64,000 bases of DNA from an uncultured virus (IMG/VR IMGVR_UViG_2831345111_000005) (IMGVR_UViG_2831345111_000005), one strand, 5' to 3'; positions 9,958-64,000 are shown, numbered from the stretch's first letter. Notes: generated by a model from the letters alone, not told the origin. Numbers and translations: made by a program.

Positions 9958-12222
9958 TCAGAAAATCAACTCACAAACTCCGCCTGCGCAAGCTGCGCCT
10001 GCGAGGTTTCCGGTGTCCACAAATTCCTTTTGACCCAGCTCTGTCGAGAAATCGACTTCCTCAATCGTGCGCTGGATACGGACCCACTTATGCAAGTTGT
10101 AGACATCCTTGACGCAGAACGACGCTTTCTGAGTATTGCCATCGAAGAAATTCTGAGCGAACTTCTCAAAACGGCGGACCCAGTCACGACGCAGCAGGTC
10201 ACGCGCTTCATCGGTCAGCTTCAGGCCAAAGCCCATAGCCGTATCCGTTGCTTGCCACAGGTTGTTGTCGAAGGCGTGGAGGCCATCAACAATCAAGCCG
10301 GAGGCGAACATGGAGGCGTCACCGTACATCTGCAGGATTTCCTCGGCCGTGTGAACTTCCGTGAACGGAGCTTGGGCGTAGGCCTTGTCACCGCTAGCGG
10401 CGAGCAAGCTCACGCCGGCGAACCATTGGCGGTTGTCATACAGGTACTGTTCCACAGCAGCCCAATCATCCACGGTAATGGTGTTGGAGATGTTGTGACG
10501 CAGATGCTTGTCTACGCAGAGCTCGACGTTGGTGCCGTTCTCAACCCAATGCATCTGGGCCTTTTTCACGTATTCAAGCTGCTTGACGCCCAGCAGGTCC
10601 TTCTTCGTAATCGAACCTTCCTTCGTTTCCACGGGGAAGGCGACCACAAAGTCAGTGCCATTGGTCGACCACACACTGTTTTCAACCATGTCCGGATTGC
10701 GGTCCTTAATCAGGCGGCCGGCATCGGACTCCATATTGACTTGCACGTGACGGAAGTACCGTGCACTGTGCTCGCCATGGATGCCGGATGCGGTGCCCAA
10801 CAGGACAGATGCGTTACCAGACGGCTTTGCGCAGGTGGTACGAGCAGCCGGGTTGATGCCCAACAGCTTAGCCACCACACGGTTGGTCTCCTTCACGATT
10901 TCAGCACCCTTTTTCAGGATACGTTCGTCGAACAGGATAGCAGGATTATTCATCCAGCCCGTGATGGAAACACCCAGCAGCGCTTCACGTTCCGTAATCT
11001 GACGCGATGCGTCAGACAGGTACTTGAAGTTGGTGTAACCAGCTTGCAGGGTACCCAGGATTGCACCGGCACGGCAGGCCTTGTAGAAGGCTTCTTCCGA
11101 ATCGCACTTGCCACCATTGATTTCCGTCAGGTTGCAGAACTGGAAGCCAGTTTCGCCAGACTCAGCAATGGGGCGCATGCCGATTTCCACGCATGGGTTA
11201 TAAGCGAAGTCCAGGTCTTCAGTGAAGATAAACCCAGGTTCACCGAAATCACGGACCGAAGTCATGATTTCTGCCCACTTCTCACGCGTGAGCTTGGAAC
11301 GCTCCACCATAACCGAGTTGTTGCTACGGCCACGTTGCGGATTATCCACGAACCAGTTGCCGGTCTTGGCCTTCAACATGTCTTCATCATCGATGGAGAA
11401 CATGGCGATGGTTGCAGAGCGACGAACACCACCAGACAGAACCGCATCCGCGAGGTGCATCACGATGTCATAGACATCAATGGTGCGCAGGCGGGTTTCG
11501 CCACCAGCCAGACGGCGCTCGATGAGCTCCTCGACCTTCTGCAGCGAAGCACGCAGGCCATCAGGACCAGGGGCCTTGAAACCACCGGCAATGAAGGCGC
11601 CTTTCGGACGAATCTGGGTGTAGTCGAAGTGCACGGTATGGCCATGGAACTCACGGAACTCACCACCATCAGTGAAGTAGGAGGCGAGCAGAACTCCAGC
11701 TGCATCAGCCCAACCTTCGATACTGTCGGCGATGACATGAACCTTCACATCGCTGATAGAACGGAAAGCGATTTCCGGGAGCTTGGCCACGTGATGCTTT
11801 TGCACACTGAAACCAACACCGCAGCCGCACAGCAGCAGATACAGCGTTTCCTGAAAGAACCGGACACGGTCTGCATAGCTGACGCTGCAGTTGTACATCT
11901 TGGCTTCGTGCTTCAGCAGCGAGCTTTGCTTCATCTCGCCATTCACGACGGTAGCGGGGCCACCGAACTGGAATGACCGCTGAGAACCGAGTACACGACG
12001 AGACTTGTAGGCTTGCGCCGCTTCGTCCATCAGGTCCTTCAGCTCCGGCGTCATGCGGTCAGCATACTTCTCAGCATGCATGGCCATGACACGGTCGACA
12101 GCTTCCGACATCGTTTCACGACGGACTAAACCGTCTTCGTGAATTTCCTGCGTGTAGTCGCACATTTTGAATGCGGACATCATCGCCTTACCGATTGCGG
12201 ACTTGGTTGCATTAACTTGCAT
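9958..12222 (-). CDS. nrdJ: class II (adenosylcobalamin-dependent) ribonucleotide reductase
   Basis: YNCS, GCGVGFSV, SGGVRRSA, RGRSNNS, NPCVEI, CNLTEI, KPSGNAS, C-terminal CAGGVC; no nrdB in the window. Confidence 0.85.
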   Translation of the reverse strand: MQVNATKSAIGKAMMSAFKMCDYTQEIHEDGLVRRETMSEAVDRVMAMHAEKYADRMTPELKDLMDEAAQAYKSRRVLGSQRSFQFGGPATVVNGEMKQSSLLKHEAKMYNCSVSYADRVRFFQETLYLLLCGCGVGFSVQKHHVAKLPEIAFRSISDVKVHVIADSIEGWADAAGVLLASYFTDGGEFREFHGHTVHFDYTQIRPKGAFIAGGFKAPGPDGLRASLQKVEELIERRLAGGETRLRTIDVYDIVMHLADAVLSGGVRRSATIAMFSIDDEDMLKAKTGNWFVDNPQRGRSNNSVMVERSKLTREKWAEIMTSVRDFGEPGFIFTEDLDFAYNPCVEIGMRPIAESGETGFQFCNLTEINGGKCDSEEAFYKACRAGAILGTLQAGYTNFKYLSDASRQITEREALLGVSITGWMNNPAILFDERILKKGAEIVKETNRVVAKLLGINPAARTTCAKPSGNASVLLGTASGIHGEHSARYFRHVQVNMESDAGRLIKDRNPDMVENSVWSTNGTDFVVAFPVETKEGSITKKDLLGVKQLEYVKKAQMHWVENGTNVELCVDKHLRHNISNTITVDDWAAVEQYLYDNRQWFAGVSLLAASGDKAYAQAPFTEVHTAEEILQMYGDASMFASGLIVDGLHAFDNNLWQATDTAMGFGLKLTDEARDLLRRDWVRRFEKFAQNFFDGNTQKASFCVKDVYNLHKWVRIQRTIEEVDFSTELGQKEFVDTGNLAGAACAGGVCELIF

Positions 12223-12795
12223 AATTTGTTTCCCTTTATAAGTAAATAAAAATATGAACCTTTGAGTAGTTGTATAGCGCCTAAGGCGCAATAGTGCTAA
12301 GCGCAGGTCCATATCGAAATGAATGCCCCAAGGGATGGGGCAATGGGTTAAACCCTGAACAGCTTCAGCTGTTCTTTTGGTGTGAGTTTTTCAACTCTGG
12401 ATAGCAGCTTCCCGGCTTCCTTCGGGGAGAGCCGTGAAATTGCCTCTGCCCATCTTGATTGAATGACGGCGGCAATTGAAGTGCGGTCACCATCTCGAGC
12501 AACCGCTCCTGGTCGGATTGGATAGGGGCTAGTTCACGTTCATGCACCCATACAAATGCCCAGGGGAAACGCTTACCCTGCCAAAGAGCACCCTGGCTAA
12601 CAACACGAATAGGCCGGGGGCTTGAATGCTTAACAACCTTATGCATAACAACTCCTGTAGACGTACCTGTCCCTAGGTGGGAAGGCTTCATTTGGGTGTT
12701 GTTGGTTGTTAACTCATAGCTATTGAAGTATAGTGTCTAATGATATATCGGTCAACCTATACAGAGACTGGACATATTAATTTTCGGAGACCGAA

Positions 12796-15935: not shown

Positions 15936-16382
15936 TTATCCGCCAGCGCGTTCAAGGTCACGCGCCTTTTGGTCTGCGCGCTTATCGTATTGCTTCTTCC
16001 CCTTAGCAAGGCCGATGAGCAGCTTGAGCTTGCGGCCGGCGCCTTCACGCTGTACTTCCAATGGGACGATGGTGTAGCCGCGCTCCACAACCTTCTTTTG
16101 AAGTTTGTTAAGCTCGGAACGATTGAGGAGAAGCTTACGGGTGCGAACAGCAGAAACGCCGTTCAGTGCGTTGCGCTGAACATGCGCATCTGGGGTGAGA
16201 TGGGTACCTTCAAGAAATGCTTCACCATCACGTATGGCGATAAAGGCACCACCCATGCCGAAATTGCCGCGGCCGGCGAGGATGCTCTTCACTTCCCAGC
16301 CTTCAAGAACCATCCCTGCAAGGAATGTATCCTCGATGTGATAGTTGTGACGCGCCTGACGATTTTCAGCAATGGTTTCCAT
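15936..16382 (-). CDS. smpB: SsrA-binding protein SmpB
   Basis: NRQARHNY.IE..AG.VL.GWEVKS, RKLLL, KGKKQYDKR. Confidence 0.95.
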   Translation of the reverse strand: METIAENRQARHNYHIEDTFLAGMVLEGWEVKSILAGRGNFGMGGAFIAIRDGEAFLEGTHLTPDAHVQRNALNGVSAVRTRKLLLNRSELNKLQKKVVERGYTIVPLEVQREGAGRKLKLLIGLAKGKKQYDKRADQKARDLERAGG

Positions 16383-16419
16383 GTTTTGTCCTTTGAAAAA
16401 AACAAAAGCCCCAGTTAAG

Positions 16420-16735
16420 GGGCCTCTGTGAAGGAATTGCTTAACAAGGCTCCTTCAAACCCCGGCTTGGTCAAGCGACCAGGCGATAAGATTCGTCGTT
16501 TGCGAATACTTTTTTGCTACTTCATGGCACAAGTGCCGCAGTGTTCGCCTACTGCCGTTGCCGCCTTCATCTCCCAACGCTGTCGAAGCCTGGCGCCCCC
16601 GTCAGAAGAGTTGTTAGGTTAGTAGGCCATTCCAGTATTAGTGGACATCCGGCAAACCGACAGCTCTTTTGGTGGAGGCGGGGGGAATCGAACCCCCTTC
16701 CAACGCCGTTTAACTCCAGAGGAATTACAACGATT
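16420..16735 (-). ncRNA. ssrA: circularly permuted two-piece tmRNA. Acceptor piece ~16735-16670, intervening segment 16669-16601, coding piece 16600-~16420
   Basis: The 3' end GGGGGTTCGATTCCCCCCGCCTCCACCA is transcribed before the 5' end GGGGGCGCCAGGCTTCGAC; 7-bp acceptor with G3-U70; tag ORF 16503-16471 = ANDESYRLVA*; adjacent to smpB. Outer ends approximate. Confidence 0.9.
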
Positions 16736-16855
16736 CAAGCAGTATATACAAAATAGACAGTTTTGTCAATAACTATTTCTATACTTAACAATCCATCCCT
16801 CTTAATCTTACCCATGTTCACTTCGCGCGCAGGCTCTGATACTAAATCCTCAAGC

Positions 16856-39429: not shown

Positions 39430-41268
39430 GTGGACCTCGGTTCTATTGTTAAAGCGTGGCTGGCCACTGACGCCGGCACGTGTGCCTTATTTGGATTTTC
39501 CGCTTATGCCCTATGGACATCTTGGCGCAAGTTGGCGACTCGCTGGGATAAGTGGTTCCCCCTCGCAACGAAGGTCGCCAAATGGACCCTGTATGCTGCG
39601 GCATTTGGCGTCCTGATTCTTTTCTTCCAGGCGCTTGGCAGCAACTTGTTTGCCATGCCTAACGGCCTGTTTGCGTTGTTCGGCGCAGGCATCATCCCGC
39701 TGGCCAACCTTGGCATTCGTCGCTTGCGCCCGAAAGAGAAGGTGCGCCGCGGTTCCGAGGTGGGGACGCCTTCCGATGTGAATAAGGCGACGTCAAAAGC
39801 ACTGCCTAGTTCAGACTTTCAGGAGAGCTTTAATATTGGAGGGGTCAACATTCCTCGCTCGGCGGAGCCCTATCACTTCTTTGTGGTGGGCTCTACGGGC
39901 TCAGGCAAGTCTGTCTTCATTACCAGCCTCATCGACCACCTGGAAGCGCGCGGAGATATCGCGATAATTGTCGACTCAGGCGGTGAATTCAGCTCTCGCT
40001 ACATGAAGCCCGGTCGAGACCACATCCTGAATCCTTTCGACGACCGCTGCGTGCCCTGGTCGCCTACCGCTGAAATGGCCGGGCCTTGGGATGCAGAAGC
40101 ACTGGCCAAGTCAATGATTCCGGACGGGGTAGGGGAGTCCAAGGATTGGAATAGCTATGCGCAAACGCTAGTGACCTCGATACTGCGCCGCCTGGTAGAA
40201 CGTAAGCAGCTCTCCATCAAGGACCTGCTCTATTATGTTCAGGCCGCGCCAATTTCCGAGCTGGAACCATTGTTGGCGGGCACACCGGCCGCTGCTCAGT
40301 TAGGCTCCGATAAGACCTTTGGCTCCATCCGCACGATTGCAGCCAACTATCTTGGAACCTACGCCTACCTTGAAGACAATGCGAATCCATTCTCTGTCGC
40401 CAATTTCATCAAGGCAGAAAAACCTGGCTTCCTGTTCCTGACCTACCGGGATGACCAGCTGGATTCCTTGCGCAACATGATGTCTTGCATCCTGGACATT
40501 GCCGCACGGACCATTTTAGCTTTGCCGGCCAGTCCTACGCGTCGCGTATGGCTCATCATCGACGAATTCGCCTCAATTGGTAAGGTGCAGTCGATTGAAG
40601 CCGTCGCCACCAAGGCACGAAAGATGGGTGGCTGCTTGCTGCTGGGCCTGCAGTCGGTATCTCAACTGCAAGACCGATATGGAGATAAGGCTGCTCAGAC
40701 TATCCTTTCCTGCCTTTCCTCCTGGATGGTGCTGCGATGCTCGGATGCTGAAACTTCTGAGTATGTATCAAAATATATTGGCGATTCTGAAATCTCGCGC
40801 ATGACTCGAGGGGAGAGCAGCTCTGAATCTGGAGGGTCGGATTCCTTAAACGAGCAGATTCAAACTCAACGGGCAGTGATGCCGGTGGAACTCCAGCGGC
40901 TGGCCAATTTGCAAGGCTTCTTCAAGTTGGCGGGGGACTATCCAATTTGCTCGCTAAAACTGCCGTTCCCCAAGAAGCGGGATAAGAGGGCAAAGAATTA
41001 CGTCGACCGCGACTTTGTGGCGCGTCCAATGCTGGACCTCATTCCAAAGGGGGATGCGAGCCAACCACAGAGTGGCGGAGTGGGGCTGGTGGCCGCACTC
41101 CCGGAAACGCCCGCCGCAGCACCGGCGCCAGCGCAACCGGTAATGCAGGAGGAAGCTGCCCCAGCAAAACCCGCTCCGCTGAAGTTCCGAAAGAATCCTA
41201 TGGACTCGGGTCCGGCCGAGTTCCAGGCGATACTCACAGAACTGGCGGAACTGGACGAAGAAATGTAG
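39430..41268 (+). CDS. type IV secretion coupling protein (TraD/TrwB family)
   Basis: N-terminal TM helices, GSTGSGKS, D.GGEF, NPFDDR..WSP, IIDEFAS, RK.GG....G.QS..QL...YG. Confidence 0.9.
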   Translation: MDLGSIVKAWLATDAGTCALFGFSAYALWTSWRKLATRWDKWFPLATKVAKWTLYAAAFGVLILFFQALGSNLFAMPNGLFALFGAGIIPLANLGIRRLRPKEKVRRGSEVGTPSDVNKATSKALPSSDFQESFNIGGVNIPRSAEPYHFFVVGSTGSGKSVFITSLIDHLEARGDIAIIVDSGGEFSSRYMKPGRDHILNPFDDRCVPWSPTAEMAGPWDAEALAKSMIPDGVGESKDWNSYAQTLVTSILRRLVERKQLSIKDLLYYVQAAPISELEPLLAGTPAAAQLGSDKTFGSIRTIAANYLGTYAYLEDNANPFSVANFIKAEKPGFLFLTYRDDQLDSLRNMMSCILDIAARTILALPASPTRRVWLIIDEFASIGKVQSIEAVATKARKMGGCLLLGLQSVSQLQDRYGDKAAQTILSCLSSWMVLRCSDAETSEYVSKYIGDSEISRMTRGESSSESGGSDSLNEQIQTQRAVMPVELQRLANLQGFFKLAGDYPICSLKLPFPKKRDKRAKNYVDRDFVARPMLDLIPKGDASQPQSGGVGLVAALPETPAAAPAPAQPVMQEEAAPAKPAPLKFRKNPMDSGPAEFQAILTELAELDEEM

Positions 41269-45929: not shown

Positions 45930-46002
45930 TTGGATGTGACAATGTTTACATGAGCAAGCAATATCTGGCTTGTTGTTTACTCATGTAAGCAAAACGATTA
46001 AT

Positions 46003-46089
46003 GGAGAGTTGGCGAAATTGGTAGCCGCACGGGTTTGCTAAACCCGCAGCTGAAAGGCTGTGTGAGTTCAAGTCTCACACTCTCCGCCA
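46003..46089 (+). tRNA. tRNA-Ser(GCU)
   Basis: CGGGT-TTGCTAA-ACCCG, long V arm. Confidence 0.9.
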
Positions 46090-46095
46090 TCTTCA

Positions 46096-46171
46096 GGAGT
46101 AGGTACATCGCCCCTAACTAAAAGGGTTTGGAGGCCTTTGAACGCATCCAGCCGATGTGCTGAAACAGTTT
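46096..46171 (+). ncRNA. GGAGTAG...TGAAACAGTTT element, copy A
   Basis: Conserved flanks around stem GTACATCG/CGATGTGC. Confidence 0.6.
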
Positions 46172-46175
46172 CTGA

Positions 46176-46252
46176 TGGGGATTAGCCAAGTTGGTAAGGC
46201 ACCTGGTTCTGAGCCAGGCTATGCGTAGGTTCGAGCCCTACATCCCCCGCCA
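46176..46252 (+). tRNA. tRNA-Gln(CUG)
   Basis: CCTGG-TTCTGAG-CCAGG, GCCA end. Confidence 0.9.
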
Positions 46253-46259
46253 AACATCC

Positions 46260-46381
46260 GGAGTAGATAGCAGCGACAATTGTCGTTTAACGGTAAGGAC
46301 GCCTCTTATATGAGGGAGGAGATGCGGAGTCGATGCCCGCCGGCCACCTGGAGGTGGTGCTTGCTGCTATTGAAACAGTTT
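46260..46381 (+). ncRNA. GGAGTAG...TGAAACAGTTT element, copy B (encloses tRNA-like D/T arms)
   Basis: Stem ATAGCAGCG/TGCTGCTAT; GTCGTTTAACGGTAAGGACG D-arm-like. Confidence 0.65.
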
Positions 46382-46384
46382 TTC

Positions 46385-46511
46385 GGAGTAGGTTGAATCC
46401 CCGTTAGGTGTCGTCTAATGGCAGGATATCCCCAAGCGAAGGGGAAGATGGTGGCATCGATGTCATCCGCCGGTCCCTGTGAAGGACTAGGGTATTCAAC
46501 TGAAACAGTTT
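46385..46511 (+). ncRNA. GGAGTAG...TGAAACAGTTT element, copy C (encloses tRNA-like D/T arms)
   Basis: Stem GTTGAAT/ATTCAAC; GTCGTCTAATGGCAGGATA D-arm-like. Confidence 0.65.
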
Positions 46512-46513
46512 TT

Positions 46514-46586
46514 CTCCTTGCCAATGGACAGGGCCCGACGCTACGAACGTCAGGATAGGTGAGTTCGATTCTCCCCGAGGAGGCCA
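46514..46586 (+). tRNA. tRNA-Arg(ACG), shortened D arm
   Basis: CTCCTTG/CGAGGAG, GACG-CTACGAA-CGTC, GCCA end. Confidence 0.7.
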
Positions 46587-46592
46587 GTATAT

Positions 46593-46726
46593 GCTTCTGT
46601 AGCTCAGTCTTAGAGCACTTCCATTAGCAGGATGAGTCCGCTACGAATAAGCGACTGGTGGCCCTTGGGTCCCGGCTGGTCGATAAATCGCGGTATGCCC
46701 TGGTTAAACTCCAGGCAGAAGCACCA
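46593..46726 (+). ncRNA. tRNA-like RNA with an expanded central domain
   Basis: GCTTCTG/CAGAAGC-ACCA, D arm TAGCTCAGTCTTAGAGC, T arm CCTGGTTAAACTCCAGG. Confidence 0.7.
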
Positions 46727-46740
46727 ATTATTAGGCTATA

Positions 46741-49543: not shown

Positions 49544-49547
49544 TTTT

Positions 49548-49646
49548 GCAGAGTGAGTCCGGTAGGCTGCCGGTATGAATCAATAAGAGTTGTGCTTGGT
49601 GGTTCCAGGCCCAGCCCGCGCAGTTCGATACTGCAACTCTGCACCA
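49548..49646 (+). ncRNA. tRNA-like RNA without a recognisable anticodon arm
   Basis: GCAGAGT/ACTCTGC-ACCA, T arm GCAGTTCGATACTGC. Confidence 0.65.
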
Positions 49647-49654
49647 TTTTAAAA

Positions 49655-52744: not shown

Positions 52745-53608
52745 TCCCGCATGGGGGTGATAGCTGCAGTGATGCAGTCAAAGCGAGGTAGCCCACTAAC
52801 TCGCGCCTGTCCGCAAACAGGTCAATCCATGCAAGCCTCCCTGGCGCCGTGAGGCGCGCTTCGCTGACAAGAGCGGCGGAGCTAGGGGTAAAGCGTGTGG
52901 ATGGGAAAGAACTTTGCCTTACGGGCCGGCCTTACGGCTGGGAACCCGTGGTATTGAACAGCAGCGGGTGGTGCCGCGGTCCAGCCAAACCAAACACGTT
53001 AATCCGGACGGGAAAGGGTAGCGTTGTTGTCGTAGATGCCCTCAATGGCGACAACGCAGATTTAAGGGTAATGGCATAGGCCCCGCTGGGACCATGACAG
53101 AATCCTGAAAATCGGTTGAGTATCCGGCAGGAGAAAGACATGCTGCGAAGCGTATTCTGTGTCTCAAAAGGACATGGAGCGTTTGGACACGCTCGCGGCG
53201 GTGGGTTGCAATAGCTCAATTGGAAGAGCGTCAGAATTGATAATCTGAAGGCTGTGGATTCGAACTCCACTCGCATTTAAACGCAAAGTCGTGTCCGACA
53301 GCACATGAAAGTGGCTTAATTCTGCCCACGGCGACGTGAAGGCAGACATCCAAAGCTCGCAAAGCTGAGGGTGTTGATTGGAATCCGCACGTAGAGGCTG
53401 CAACCTCGAACGGCTCGCAAGGTCGGCGGTAGGACGATAATCGAGTAGTGTGTTGTGTCATGGAGGAAGCCTTCCTTGGCGAAAGCCTAAAACGGCAGCC
53501 ACGGTGCCCGACTCCTTTGAGGGGTGGATAAGCCAGAAACGCTGGGACGCAAGCCCGGCGATAACCTGAGCGAACGGGGTGCTATTAAAGCTGTAATCTC
53601 AAGCTTTT
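52745..53608 (+). ncRNA. GOLLD-like large ncRNA (5' boundary uncertain) with an embedded tRNA-Ile(GAU)-like module at ~53205-53278
   Basis: ~0.9 kb with no credible ORF and dense hairpins, inside a tRNA array, with an embedded tRNA. 3' motif order CTCGCAAGG..CGAGTAGTG..CTAAAAC..GTGGATAAG..GAAAC..CTGTAATCTCAAGC resembles the GOLLD 3' domain as I recall it; not verified by a covariance-model search. Confidence 0.65.
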
Positions 53609-61362: not shown

Positions 61363-63576
61363 ATGCAATTCGTAAATCTGGAAGTAGGCACCTTGTATTT
61401 GACGTCAGGCTTGCCTGGCGCCGGCAAGTCCACGTGGCTGGGAAGCGGCAACATTTTACCCAGCATGATTCTATCTGCGGATGCAATTCGTGAGTCCGTG
61501 CTTGGCCATAAAATGGTCGGTGGCTTGAAGCATATTTTTCAGGACAGGAATGATGTTGTCTGGTCATTACTGAATCAAATCCTGGAAGTTCGCCTCAAGG
61601 AAAAGCTCACGACGTTCGTGGATGCAACGTTACTCAACGATGCTGAGCGTGAGCCTTTGGTGAAGCTCGCCCAGAAGCATGGCGTGAAAGTGGTAGTGCT
61701 GATTTTTGACCGCCCCTTTGACACGTGTATGGTGCAAAACATTTCCCGGCAAGACCGGGTCTCCGAGTATCGGATGAATGAGATGTCCAAGGAGTTTCAG
61801 CTGGACAGCATGTATCCGTTCGTGCGTGTGCCGGAATTCACGGTGCCTCGGTTGGTGTCTCGCGACCTGCCTGACACCAACTTCGATGTCATCGGGGATG
61901 TTCATGGCCTGCTTGACGACTTGAAGGTGTTGCTGGGCAAGCTCGGGTATTCCCTCGAGTCTGGTGTGCCCGTACATCCGCAGGGCCGTAAGCTGCTTTT
62001 CCTGGGTGACGTCGTTGACCGTGGGCCTCAATCCATTGAGACCTTGAAGTTCGTCCGCCAGGCTATAGCGGTTGGGCACTTGATGGTCGCAGGTAATCAT
62101 GAGCGCAAATTGCTGCAGTTCTGGGATTCACTCCAGACTGGGGCACCTCGCGCAAATTCTCCATCTGCTGCTGAAACGGCCATGGAGTTCATGAAGCTGC
62201 GTGAGGAAGAACAGCAGGCTTTGATTCAGTTTGTCCGAAACCTGCCTGGCTTCTACACTGTGACCGACGGGCCACTCCAGCTTGCGTTTGCGCATGCACC
62301 GCAGACGGCTTTTCATCCTTTCACGATTCTGCATTCTGAATGCCTGTATGGCGGGAATGAGTTGCCGGATTATGGCGATGAGGACGCCGACGGGATGTAT
62401 GCGGAGAGCTATCGCAGCGGCGAATCACGGCACATGCTTATCCATGGGCACATCCCGTTGACGAGTATGCATCATTGCGTGTTCTCACTGGACGCCCACC
62501 AAGCGTTTGCCGGAAACATGCTGGCCTTGCGCCTGGATGGATTCTTGGCTGACTGTCGCGAAAAGATGGCTCAAGAGGCCTTCAATGACAATCTCGTTTC
62601 CCAAAAGTGCGAGTTTGACTTCGACGTACACAGCGCCAAGTTTGAACTGAAGCGTTCGCTGGATAAGCTGAAGACCGCCAAGATGGTGACCGTGCAAACG
62701 GAGCCGTCGGCCGGCCTATCGCTCTACAAGTATTCGAAGCGTGTGTTTTTCGATGCATTGTGGGGTGAGAGCCCTTATCTCCTGAAGGCTCGCGGTATCG
62801 TGCTTGACCTGGCTGGAAACATTGTCGTGCATCCGTTCGACAAGGTGTTTAACTATGGTGAAAACGGTGCCGGTCTCGATATCGCAGACGACCATCCGGT
62901 CTACGCGGTTGAGAAGATGAATGGCTTCCTAGGCTGCATCAGTCGCCATCCTTGGAAGAATGAACTGCTGGTGACGAGCTCCGGGTCATTCGACTCGCCG
63001 TTCGTTGACTACATCAAGTCGTTCATCACGCCGGCATTGAAGGGGCTGCTCCTCTCGTACTTCTCGCGCAACAACGTGACGCTCATGTTCGAGGTTCTGC
63101 ATCCGGAAGACCCGCACATCATCCAGTACCGGCCGCAAGACATGGGCCTTTGGTTGATTGGTGGGCGAGGTAAGGAGCAGGGCGCTGAGCCGATAACGGA
63201 AGATGAGTTGGACGAAATCGGGTTGATGTTGACCGTGAATCGTCCGGAGTGGTTCTACACGTCGTTCGGGCAGCTGAAGGAAAAGGTGGCCACCTCCCGA
63301 CTGGAAGGCTATATGGTTCGGGATGCGAAGTCACACAAGACGCTCTTGAAGTTCAAGACGCCTTATTACCTTGTGACCAAGTTCCTCGGCCGTATGAGCG
63401 ACACCAAGGTACGGCACATGTTCTGTCATCCTAAGGGATTCAAGAAGGACATCGATGAGGAGTTCTACCCGTTGGTCGACCACCTGGTCACCACAACCTC
63501 GGAGACTGACTTCTTGGCGCTGCCGGATACAGAACGTGTAGTCCTGGTGCGAGACGCAATTCAAGCACTGCGCTAA
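61363..63576 (+). CDS. polynucleotide kinase-metallophosphatase-RNA ligase (Rnl1-like) fusion for RNA repair
   Basis: GLPGAGKST + VDAT kinase; GDVHG/GDVVDRG/GNHE/HGH phosphoesterase; ARG..PFDKVFN, EKMNG, FE, EGY, K.K ligase motifs. Confidence 0.9.
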   Translation: MQFVNLEVGTLYLTSGLPGAGKSTWLGSGNILPSMILSADAIRESVLGHKMVGGLKHIFQDRNDVVWSLLNQILEVRLKEKLTTFVDATLLNDAEREPLVKLAQKHGVKVVVLIFDRPFDTCMVQNISRQDRVSEYRMNEMSKEFQLDSMYPFVRVPEFTVPRLVSRDLPDTNFDVIGDVHGLLDDLKVLLGKLGYSLESGVPVHPQGRKLLFLGDVVDRGPQSIETLKFVRQAIAVGHLMVAGNHERKLLQFWDSLQTGAPRANSPSAAETAMEFMKLREEEQQALIQFVRNLPGFYTVTDGPLQLAFAHAPQTAFHPFTILHSECLYGGNELPDYGDEDADGMYAESYRSGESRHMLIHGHIPLTSMHHCVFSLDAHQAFAGNMLALRLDGFLADCREKMAQEAFNDNLVSQKCEFDFDVHSAKFELKRSLDKLKTAKMVTVQTEPSAGLSLYKYSKRVFFDALWGESPYLLKARGIVLDLAGNIVVHPFDKVFNYGENGAGLDIADDHPVYAVEKMNGFLGCISRHPWKNELLVTSSGSFDSPFVDYIKSFITPALKGLLLSYFSRNNVTLMFEVLHPEDPHIIQYRPQDMGLWLIGGRGKEQGAEPITEDELDEIGLMLTVNRPEWFYTSFGQLKEKVATSRLEGYMVRDAKSHKTLLKFKTPYYLVTKFLGRMSDTKVRHMFCHPKGFKKDIDEEFYPLVDHLVTTTSETDFLALPDTERVVLVRDAIQALR

Positions 63577-63643
63577 GCAATAACGCTATACCCTCATGCC
63601 CCGCACATTTGTGTGGGGCGTTTTTCCATCCAAGGAGTACATC

Positions 63644-64000
63644 ATGAAATTAACGCTGGAGATTCGCGCCGCCGAGGGCGGTGAAGATGCCAAGCTCCTG
63701 GTTCATGACCAGGCAGCCATTTATCAACGCTATGCCGCACGTAACGGCATCAAGGCGTCTGTGGAGACACGGGGCCACCTTTGACCTGGTAACTCTCGAG
63801 GGACCAGCAGAAATTCTTGCCATCCTGCGCAATGAGGCCGGCGGCCATCGCTGGCAACGCGTACCTCCGACCGAACGCAAGGGCAGGATGCAAACCAGTA
63901 CCGTCACCGTTGCCGTAATGGAGGGTGAAAAATACGCTCCTTTACAGCTGAATGTGAACGATATCCAGGAGAGAGTAACAAAGGGGACTGGTCCAGGCGG
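63644..64000 (+). CDS. class I peptide chain release factor homologue (RF1-type PxT, lacking domain 1) with a programmed +1 frameshift at 63779-63785; truncated by the window end
   Basis: LEIRAAEGGEDA in frame 0; after CTT-TGA-C the +1 frame gives NEAGGHRWQRVPPTERKGRMQTSTVTVAV...KGTGPGG. Confidence 0.85.

Follow-up and report, generated by a model that had tools for sequence, protein, structure and literature searches.

A rare family of putative structured RNAs, built on an invariant basal clamp, in the tRNA array of a mobile element

Clusters of tRNA genes in phages also encode stable non-tRNA RNAs, for example, the species 1 and species 2 RNAs of T4. Polycistronic tRNA clusters of bacteria and phages further harbour allo-tRNAs with non-canonical cloverleafs, some of which have been proposed to be regulatory (Mukai et al., PMC5389517, available excerpt), and tRNA arrays on conjugative elements, such as the integrative and conjugative element (ICE) of Acidithiobacillus, represent the nearest described setting for the locus reported here (PMC4758250, available excerpt). 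This locus comprises three units, A, B and C, within the tRNA array of IMGVR_UViG_2831345111_000005, a 64,000-nucleotide stretch from an uncultured virus (hereafter, the window), which corresponds to positions 4213-68212 of C7, a 225-kb contig of a 3.69-Mb assembly (G000). Going by comparative sequence evidence, A, B and C are judged to be a genuine, rare and previously uncatalogued family of small RNAs. No description of such units or of their clamp words was found in the open-access literature searched, where the two words together gave, among the matches listed, only unrelated papers on microRNAs and other subjects, and the available excerpts of reports on tRNA arrays, GOLLD, conjugative elements, ICEAfe1 and tRNA-like cluster RNAs do not describe them (PMC4758250, PMC8421152, PMC5389517). 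The initial annotation had proposed a nameless RNA family and this has held: at gathering scores, an Rfam 15 scan of the whole window matched only tRNA, tmRNA and GOLLD, and at E<=10 the region 46050-46560 returned only tRNA-Gln and the cut end of tRNA-Ser. The preferred reading, given a probability of about 0.55, is that the units form an uncatalogued structured-RNA family co-transcribed with tRNAs, in which the clamp beneath a basal helix (P1) would serve as a sarcin-ricin-type docking platform.

Each unit is delimited by two short words on the + strand, GGAGTAG (at 46096, 46260 and 46385) and TGAAACAGTTT (at 46161, 46371 and 46501). As neither word is significant alone (GGAGTAG gives 5 matches in the window against 4.13 expected; the exact 11-mer TGAAACAGTTT occurs four times, three of them in units A-C), what matters is their combination: three such flank pairs occur in 416 nt, and inside each of them a helix sets in immediately at the flanks. 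This helix, P1, runs for 8, 10 and 7 consecutive pairs in A, B and C, respectively (9, 11 and 8 with an invariant G.U pair), and its strands (GTACATCG/CGATGTGC in A, ATAGCAGCG/TGCTGCTAT in B and GTTGAAT/ATTCAAC in C) have no sequence in common. Three copies with shared flanks and differing, yet pairing, stems had been noticed initially, and the coordinates, motifs and stems quoted then are all correct. The layout of the units is given below; bit scores are those of the covariance model R2, used in place of R1 (built from A alone), which was too weak and split the longer units.

46096..46171, + strand: copy A; 5' clamp 46096-46102, P1 formed by 46102-46110 with 46153-46161
46112-46126 and 46128-46151, + strand: interior of copy A, hairpins H1 and H2, the latter with loop CUUUGAAC (constrained fold)
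46161-46168, + strand: 3' clamp of copy A, UGAAACAG, then UUU (R2, 56.8 bits)
46260..46381, + strand: copy B; 5' clamp 46260-46266, P1 formed by 46266-46276 with 46361-46371
46281-46301 and 46302-46319, + strand: interior of copy B, D-arm-like hairpin and central hairpin (constrained fold)
46324-46340 and 46343-46358, + strand: interior of copy B, hairpin with GUCGAUG loop and last hairpin
46371-46378, + strand: 3' clamp of copy B, then UUU (R2, 42.5 bits)
46385..46511, + strand: copy C; 5' clamp 46385-46391, P1 formed by 46391-46398 with 46494-46501
46400-46402 and 46490-46492, + strand: P1 extension of copy C, CCC with GGG
46410-46427 and 46429-46445, + strand: interior of copy C, D-arm-like hairpin and central hairpin (constrained fold)
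46450-46471, + strand: interior of copy C, GGUGG/CCGCC arm with AUCGAUG in its loop
46472-46488, + strand: interior of copy C, last hairpin with loop CUGUGAA
46501-46508, + strand: 3' clamp of copy C, then UUU (R2, 101.7 bits)

A pattern search for the two flanks had been suggested at the outset, and it does recover homologues that keep the flanks around covarying stems. IMG/VR was scanned with clamp patterns, three scans giving 84, 68 and 33 stretches, and those with at least 6 flank-adjacent pairs all come from one contig, IMGVR_UViG_3300013105_000843 (G001, 129.6 kb), the rest having 0-5 pairs; over four clamp-pattern scans, G001 alone was returned besides chance matches. This metagenomic contig, classed as a provirus in IMG/VR, carries four copies on its tRNA strand: tRNA-Ser(cga) is followed by the abutting G1-a and G1-b and then, after a spacer, by G1-c, and G1-d lies between tRNA-Met and tRNA-Ser(gga), beside a GOLLD RNA of 189.6 bits. 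The TrwB protein of G001 is 65% identical to that of the window, tblastx reveals synteny over gyrA/B, TerC, RNase H, GOLLD and other genes, and both sequences have a tRNA array; by these comparisons, G001 can be regarded as a diverged relative of the element in the window. Seven full copies are thus known (three in the window and four in G001), with the consensus (C)GGAGUAG - P1 - interior - P1' - UGAAACWG - N-Y-U-rich tail. The clamp, C-GGAGUAG / UGAAACWG, is invariant over the seven except at W, which is U in G1-b only, and at the preceding base, which is C in 6/7 copies and A in copy A. In both elements a pair of units stands in tandem (B-C and G1-a-G1-b), only 6-7 nt apart and with no tRNA between.

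Further controls addressed coincidence. The three chance matches scored best by R2 (17-24 bits) belong to loci devoid of tRNAs and are contained in open frames (962, 270 and 565 aa). A looser scan (AGTA, a helix of at least 8 pairs, GAA) over both strands of the window, L201 and L202 (40 kb of G001) and L205 (18 kb of an Achromobacter relative), ~250 kb in all, recovered 6/7 known copies and nothing else. Together with the pair counts of the pattern scans, these controls exclude chance as the source of the flank-helix units. By other routes, blastn matched only tRNAs, both against phages (46000-46600) and against plasmids (46090-46515 and 39400-63900). A single TrwB protein retrieved no relatives; an alignment of TrwB retrieved G001, Achromobacter anxifer and four metagenome loci, among which R2 found matches in G001 only. 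In whole-locus searches R2 misses B and G1-b, since the modelled flanks overlap in tandem copies, and separate loci were therefore used. A scan of IMG/VR for interior motifs of B/C gave three phage loci, which were judged coincidental because a tRNA-Asn is called at each matching place (in one of them, L211, an ordinary tRNA-Asn has its 5' part within the match).

P1 is a helix of 7-11 pairs, free in sequence, kept in pairing and closed by the invariant G.U. In a count anchored on the invariant clamp, and hence independent of any aligner, 48 of 49 variable P1 positions in the seven copies pair within their own copy, the sole exception being an A.G in G1-b; when the 5' strand of one copy is set against the 3' strand of another, the mean falls to 3.76 of 7 pairs and the maximum to 6 (n=42). 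The R2-fitted alignment of the seven copies, which leans towards structure because it is fitted to it, has 96.8% of 62 P1 cells paired, with both sides changing in 8 of 9 P1 pairs; the covariation score of P1 is reached by 0/500 shuffles, and slid registers pair in 24-54%. Furthermore, 11 of 56 P1 cells are G.U or U.G (the invariant closing G.U included), and as these would be C.A on the other strand, the signal is assigned to an RNA of the tRNA strand. All copies face in the same direction as the tRNAs, both in the window and in G001.

The clamp itself carries a recognisable signature. AGUA opposite GAA constitutes the consensus of the sarcin-ricin / loop E bulged-G motif, and this word pair, the presence of which at a helix end had been pointed out initially, occurs in 7/7 copies, stacked directly on the invariant G.U (AGUA-G[P1]...[P1']U-GAA). 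From this signature, we infer that the clamp strands would form an S-turn of the sarcin-ricin / loop E type, with A.G, U.A with a bulged G, and A.A on the G.U. On sequence grounds, UGAAA would also fit a T-loop pentamer. Below AGUA/GAA, pairing is limited to a G-C and perhaps one or two more pairs; the outer flanks do not covary. The clamp might also act as a protein-binding base, as first envisaged. Other readings of the sequence were tried and rejected: a K-turn (the order of the G.A pairs does not fit), a hammerhead core (the words differ), a CRISPR-repeat tail (AUUGAAAC is present in B only), a short open reading frame (ORF) after GGAG (it has no start codon) and an interaction between the H2 loop and the 3' tail (unsupported by covariation).

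Above P1, the units differ considerably. By constrained folding, A, G1-a and G1-c are three-way junctions of P1, H1 and H2; B and C are five-way junctions (P1, D-arm-like hairpin, central hairpin, UCGAUG-loop arm and last hairpin); and G1-b and G1-d have other hairpin sets. The interiors of B and C align with each other over GTCGTYTAAYGGYARGA, the central hairpin, AGATG, TCGATG, CCGCCGG and the last hairpin, and that of A is shorter, with two hairpins. The initial annotation had described GTCGTYTAAYGGYARG, a central hairpin, a TCGATG-loop hairpin, one extra hairpin and no CCA in B and C, and all of these are present as described, GTCGTYTAAYGGYARG being found in both copies. Its idea of a tRNA-elbow mimic has had to be modified: B, C and a partial B-like copy in a metagenome run are cloverleaf-shaped, but the shape does not define the family, as A and the four G001 copies differ. 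Apart from the absence of CCA, the central loop of C reads AAGCGAA and that of B has 6 or 8 nt. The tRNA-likeness of B/C is confined to shape and short motifs. A feature shared more widely is the hairpin adjoining the 3' strand of P1, which tends to a 7-nt loop CUNKGAA(C). This loop is found in A (CUUUGAAC), G1-a (CUUGAAC), G1-b (CUGGAAC), G1-d (CCUGAAC), C (CUGUGAA) and two metagenome variants, among them C' of run X1 (CUUUGAA); the exceptions are G1-c (AUUUGG) and B (UGGA). As sequences, such loops may fit the anticodon-loop pattern (Y-U-NNN-A-N) and the T-loop pentamer (U-K-R-A-A) alike. Additionally, G1-d holds a nested AGUAG-GC-CUUU-GC-UGAAAU. The interior is, in summary, exchangeable, consisting of two hairpins, other sets of hairpins, or cloverleaf-shaped arms without an acceptor end.

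No RNA run is listed as containing the stretch; four other public runs (X1-X4; contigs, probably of DNA) supplied variants. Run X4 contains a contig nearly identical over 46349-46483 with the changes T46429C and A46445G (single contig, depth 2), which convert U-A to C-G in the first pair at the base of the central hairpin of C; this compensatory change argues that the interior structure of C is kept. Diverged relatives are present in runs X1-X3, which come from two studies, and preserve the arrangement tRNA-Ser, A', tRNA-Gln, B'. X1 has 66 different letters in place of the interior of A; the differences listed for 46159-46271 all fall at 46203-46239, inside tRNA-Gln, and none is listed in the 3' clamp of A or the 5' clamp of B. 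At the loose ends of the X1-X3 contigs, A' retains GGCCUUUGAAC with a different P1 strand, C' retains the CCC/GGG hairpin and the loop CUUUGAA, again with a different P1 strand, and B' retains GUCGUCUAAUGGUAAGGAC. Judged by these variants, conservation of the clamp equals or exceeds that of the adjacent tRNA, and the stems drift with compensation.

The units lie in an island of tRNA and translation genes on a mobile element. ARAGORN calls ~38 tRNA genes at ~42.1-60.5 kb of the window, every one on the + strand, and those which border the units are as follows.

46003..46089, + strand: tRNA-Ser(gct), directly 5' of copy A (Rfam and ARAGORN)
46176..46252, + strand: tRNA-Gln(ctg), between A and B, beginning 4 nt past the 3' flank of A
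46511..46586, + strand: irregular tRNA-Arg(acg), directly 3' of C (ARAGORN only; the Rfam tRNA model is silent)

No sigma-70-like promoter or terminator-like site was found on the + strand between 45841 and 47658, and the units abut tRNAs or each other; they are thus taken to be made as part of the tRNA polycistron. In the mechanism proposed, the units would be transcribed with the tRNAs and freed by the maturation of their neighbours, their ends being set largely by RNase P acting on the tRNA that follows and by 3'-end maturation of the one before. 3' processing of tRNA-Ser(gct) would accordingly define the 5' side of copy A. Read from the sequence, the acceptor of tRNA-Arg(acg) pairs 46514-46520 with 46576-46582, followed by G and CCA, and if RNase P cuts this tRNA at 46514, C would end in ...UGAAACAGUUUUU, with a 3' oligo-U tail. 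B and C, as well as G1-a and G1-b, would either remain joined or require another cut. In the RNA so released, P1 would close the clamp, which may offer a protein or RNA partner a docking platform and cap the end of the helix, the interior being a cargo under its own, weaker constraint. More speculatively, the frame may display non-chargeable parts of tRNAs (a D-loop with GG, and 7-nt anticodon- or T-like loops), by which factors binding tRNA or the sarcin-ricin loop could be decoyed or titrated. This last idea draws on context only, the element also carrying tRNAs, a tmRNA, an RF2-like gene and an RNA kinase/phosphatase/ligase. In its full form, clamp and P1 would be a portable display frame whose swapped tRNA pieces decoy factors attacking or sensing tRNA or the sarcin-ricin loop (for instance, anticodon nucleases, VapC-type toxins and elbow-binding proteins of the host or of rivals), amounting to an RNA counter-defence that evolves through exchange of cargo; this form is unlikely.

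Several rival explanations have to be set against the docking-platform reading. The clamp could be the core of a small self-cleaving ribozyme, or processing punctuation recognised by an endonuclease, which cuts the polycistron at places without RNase P or RNase Z sites of a tRNA (for example, between B and C) and for which the interior is irrelevant. Both boundaries of each unit do coincide with the conserved nucleotides, the tandem units B-C and G1-a-G1-b are separated by a mere 6-7 nt, the interior is highly variable and a core of ~15 nt in an internal loop matches the core size of small ribozymes. Nevertheless, the hammerhead, hatchet, pistol, twister and HDV-like families gave no Rfam match at E<=10, the interior hairpins and loops are themselves conserved or compensated, and an AGUA/GAA loop is not known to have a catalytic role, which together render this explanation decidedly improbable. 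Excision followed by ligation is a variant of the same theme, in which the clamp is cut on both strands and the ends are sealed, for instance by the ligase of the element, to give a circular or re-joined RNA, as with the archaeal bulge-helix-bulge. The clamp does join the 5' and 3' boundaries of the unit and a gene for a kinase/phosphatase/RNA ligase (61363-63576) lies in the same array, but this gene has no homologue within the 129.6 kb of G001, which carries the RNAs, no endonuclease candidate was found and the motif differs from the bulge-helix-bulge, so that the scheme is very improbable. As for decaying tRNA pseudogenes with functionless spacer hairpins, a D-arm-like hairpin, a hairpin with a 7-nt loop and a UCGAUG loop are indeed present in B/C, several tRNA genes of the arrays are irregular, and related arrays do without the units. 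Decay is, however, at odds with a clamp that is invariant in seven copies although TrwB is only 65% identical, with the covariation of P1 and the compensatory change inside C, and with a clamp left unchanged beside an altered tRNA-Gln; the pseudogene explanation is already disfavoured and its chances are slim.

Two further possibilities merit scarcely any credence. Elements acting at the level of DNA (inverted-repeat mobile elements such as MITEs, REP repeats, attC-like sites or protein-binding palindromes) would account for inverted repeats bracketed by short conserved words on a mobile element that encodes the coupling protein TrwB. Yet all seven P1 sequences differ, unlike transposed copies, the 11 G.U cells would be C.A mismatches on the other strand and weaken a DNA cruciform, and the copies of both elements run strictly in the direction of the tRNAs. 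The second is a Y RNA or YrlA-type RNA which tethers a Ro60-like ring protein via its conserved base, an analogy drawn in the initial annotation that fails on the Ro partner. The conserved base helix and the tRNA-like module of B/C speak for it, but 5/7 copies have no cloverleaf, and it is the acceptor end, not the anticodon stem, that is replaced. The TROVE domain of Ro60 (PF05731) gave 0 matches in G000, with Deinococcus and Bacteroides positive as controls, and none among the 71 ORFs of the window. A conserved terminal module is present, but no Y-RNA model matches at E<=10, the Ro-binding consensus not having been compared directly.

The docking-platform reading has its own difficulties. 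Since the clamp never varies, the S-turn is beyond the reach of covariation, and, by their sequences, GGAG or GAAA might instead form weak pairs with the UUY further downstream. The folding energies are no better than those of shuffles (z of -1.24, -0.81, -0.24 and -0.16 for A, B, C and G1-d, respectively). Tools built for tRNAs are equally unsupportive: neither ARAGORN nor RF00005 calls a tRNA in A, B or C, and local alignments of the seven units to 125 tRNAs score 20-26, not above shuffled controls (means 19.8-22.6, maxima 24-32); the derivation of the B hairpin from a T arm was rejected, as its alignment, too, was not above shuffled controls. A partner for the clamp is equally elusive, given the results for TROVE and for the ligase already stated. 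Among ORFs common to C7 and G001 and missing from 194 kb of the Achromobacter contig, no RNA-binding candidate was found (absence from that contig being unreliable, as the contig begins inside the element). Moreover, the family is tiny, with 7 full copies in 2 elements and fragments in 4 runs from 3 studies. In G000, R2 matched only copies A, B and C, and it matched none of 450 other genomes (150 relatives, 150 of the class and 150 further of the order of the Achromobacter relative, with stricter filters for large sets). Within the sequence examined, the units are also missing from related arrays, namely L205/L222 (Achromobacter anxifer, with GOLLD present), L206 and L208, and are thus dispensable for such elements. 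All of these points weigh against the docking-platform reading.

The wider setting of the array offers a number of observations. The window encodes a TrwB/TraD-type coupling protein (39430-41268), gyrase A and B, Ter proteins, thymidylate synthase, MazE/PemK and a YqeY-like protein, as well as a permuted two-piece tmRNA at 16380-16783 (-) with the tag ANDESYRLVA. A GOLLD RNA (RF02032) lies within the tRNA array at 53142-53605 (+; 174.8 bits, Rfam) and contains an embedded tRNA-like unit, 53204-53279, with an odd 4-base anticodon call; GOLLD also occurs in the Achromobacter anxifer relative, the array of which has its own tmRNA. At the end of the tRNA array, the gene at 61363-63576 (+) specifies a protein composed of an AAA_33 kinase, a calcineurin-like phosphoesterase and a T4 Rnl1-type RNA ligase domain, from which it is predicted to heal and seal RNA in the manner of Pnkp. 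At 63596-63998 (+), two overlapping frames share a PCRF domain between them (profile positions 101-139 in one and 164-194 in the next), which looks like an RF2 gene of the element with the classical programmed +1 frameshift, as judged from the reading frames; its G001 homologue is 66% identical. A 784-aa protein without a Pfam match (9958-12312, -) is 67% identical over 766 aa to a protein of G001 and is among the best conserved unknown proteins of this element family.

Irregular tRNA genes recur in these arrays. The one 3' of C (46511-46586) has acceptor strands CUCCUUG/CGAGGAG, then G and CCA, and the one 3' of G1-c, in L155 (-) at ~1236-1170, on which both ARAGORN and Rfam are silent, has CUCCCCG/CGGGGAG, then G and CCA. 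A tRNA-shaped gene at 46592-46727 (+) is missed by ARAGORN and Rfam; its acceptor is GCTTCTG/CAGAAGC, followed by A and CCA, its D and T arms are normal, and an insertion of ~60 nt follows the anticodon arm, with words (TCGCGGTAT) that recur in inter-tRNA gaps of L206 and L208. In runs X1-X3, 46560-46591 is replaced by 111 other letters and the sequence from 46592 on is retained. Another irregular tRNA-like gene, at 49544-49654 (+) between tRNA-Thr(tgt) and tRNA-Pro(ggg), also silent with ARAGORN and Rfam, has the acceptor GCAGAGT/ACTCTGC, with A and CCA after it, is normal in its T arm and odd in its 5' half, and shares a mean of 77% column identity with copies in G001 and L208. Past the window, the same array on C7 (ARAGORN range to C7:74186) includes a tRNA with the anticodon tta ('Stop', ochre-reading). 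Ser(tga) occurs on the chromosome but in none of the three arrays (C7, G001 and the Achromobacter relative); the units were considered as an unconventional tRNA-Ser(UGA) and this was rejected, as they have no acceptor end and the arrays miss other isoacceptors, too.

Large tRNA arrays of phages and conjugative elements are increasingly seen as counter-measures to tRNA-directed defence, and the non-tRNA RNAs embedded in them are almost unexplored. The present units have an unusually clean design: a helix that covaries freely stands on an internal loop of 15 invariant nt with a sarcin-ricin signature, and the interiors can be swapped. This design makes them easy to test. Should the clamp recruit a partner, it would represent a new RNA-recognition module and may explain some of the non-tRNA units of such arrays; were it only a stabilising cap, it would still provide a new entry for catalogues of RNA families.

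Compared with YrlA and Y RNAs, the units are similarly small, have a conserved basal module and, in B/C, a non-chargeable tRNA-like module, but they replace the acceptor end rather than the anticodon stem, come without a Ro60 gene in the genome and carry a cargo that is not always tRNA-like. Allo-tRNAs keep a free-ended acceptor stem and are aminoacylated, according to the available excerpt of PMC5389517, whereas the units have neither an acceptor end nor CCA. GOLLD and ROOL share their niche, GOLLD occurring in the same array of the window, G001 and the Achromobacter relative; GOLLD is, however, a separate RNA of >400 nt with no motif in common, and the Achromobacter element has it without the units. 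The T4 species 1 and 2 RNAs offer a further parallel: both they and the units are small structured RNAs located between tRNA genes on the tRNA strand and presumably released by tRNA-processing enzymes, the units being set apart by their defining clamp and exchangeable interiors. With the sarcin-ricin / loop E motif, finally, the likeness comes from the sequence signature, AGUA opposite GAA directly on a helix in 7/7 copies; what this motif closes in the units is not a GAGA tetraloop but a long helix of variable sequence, and its place is at the open end of a small RNA.

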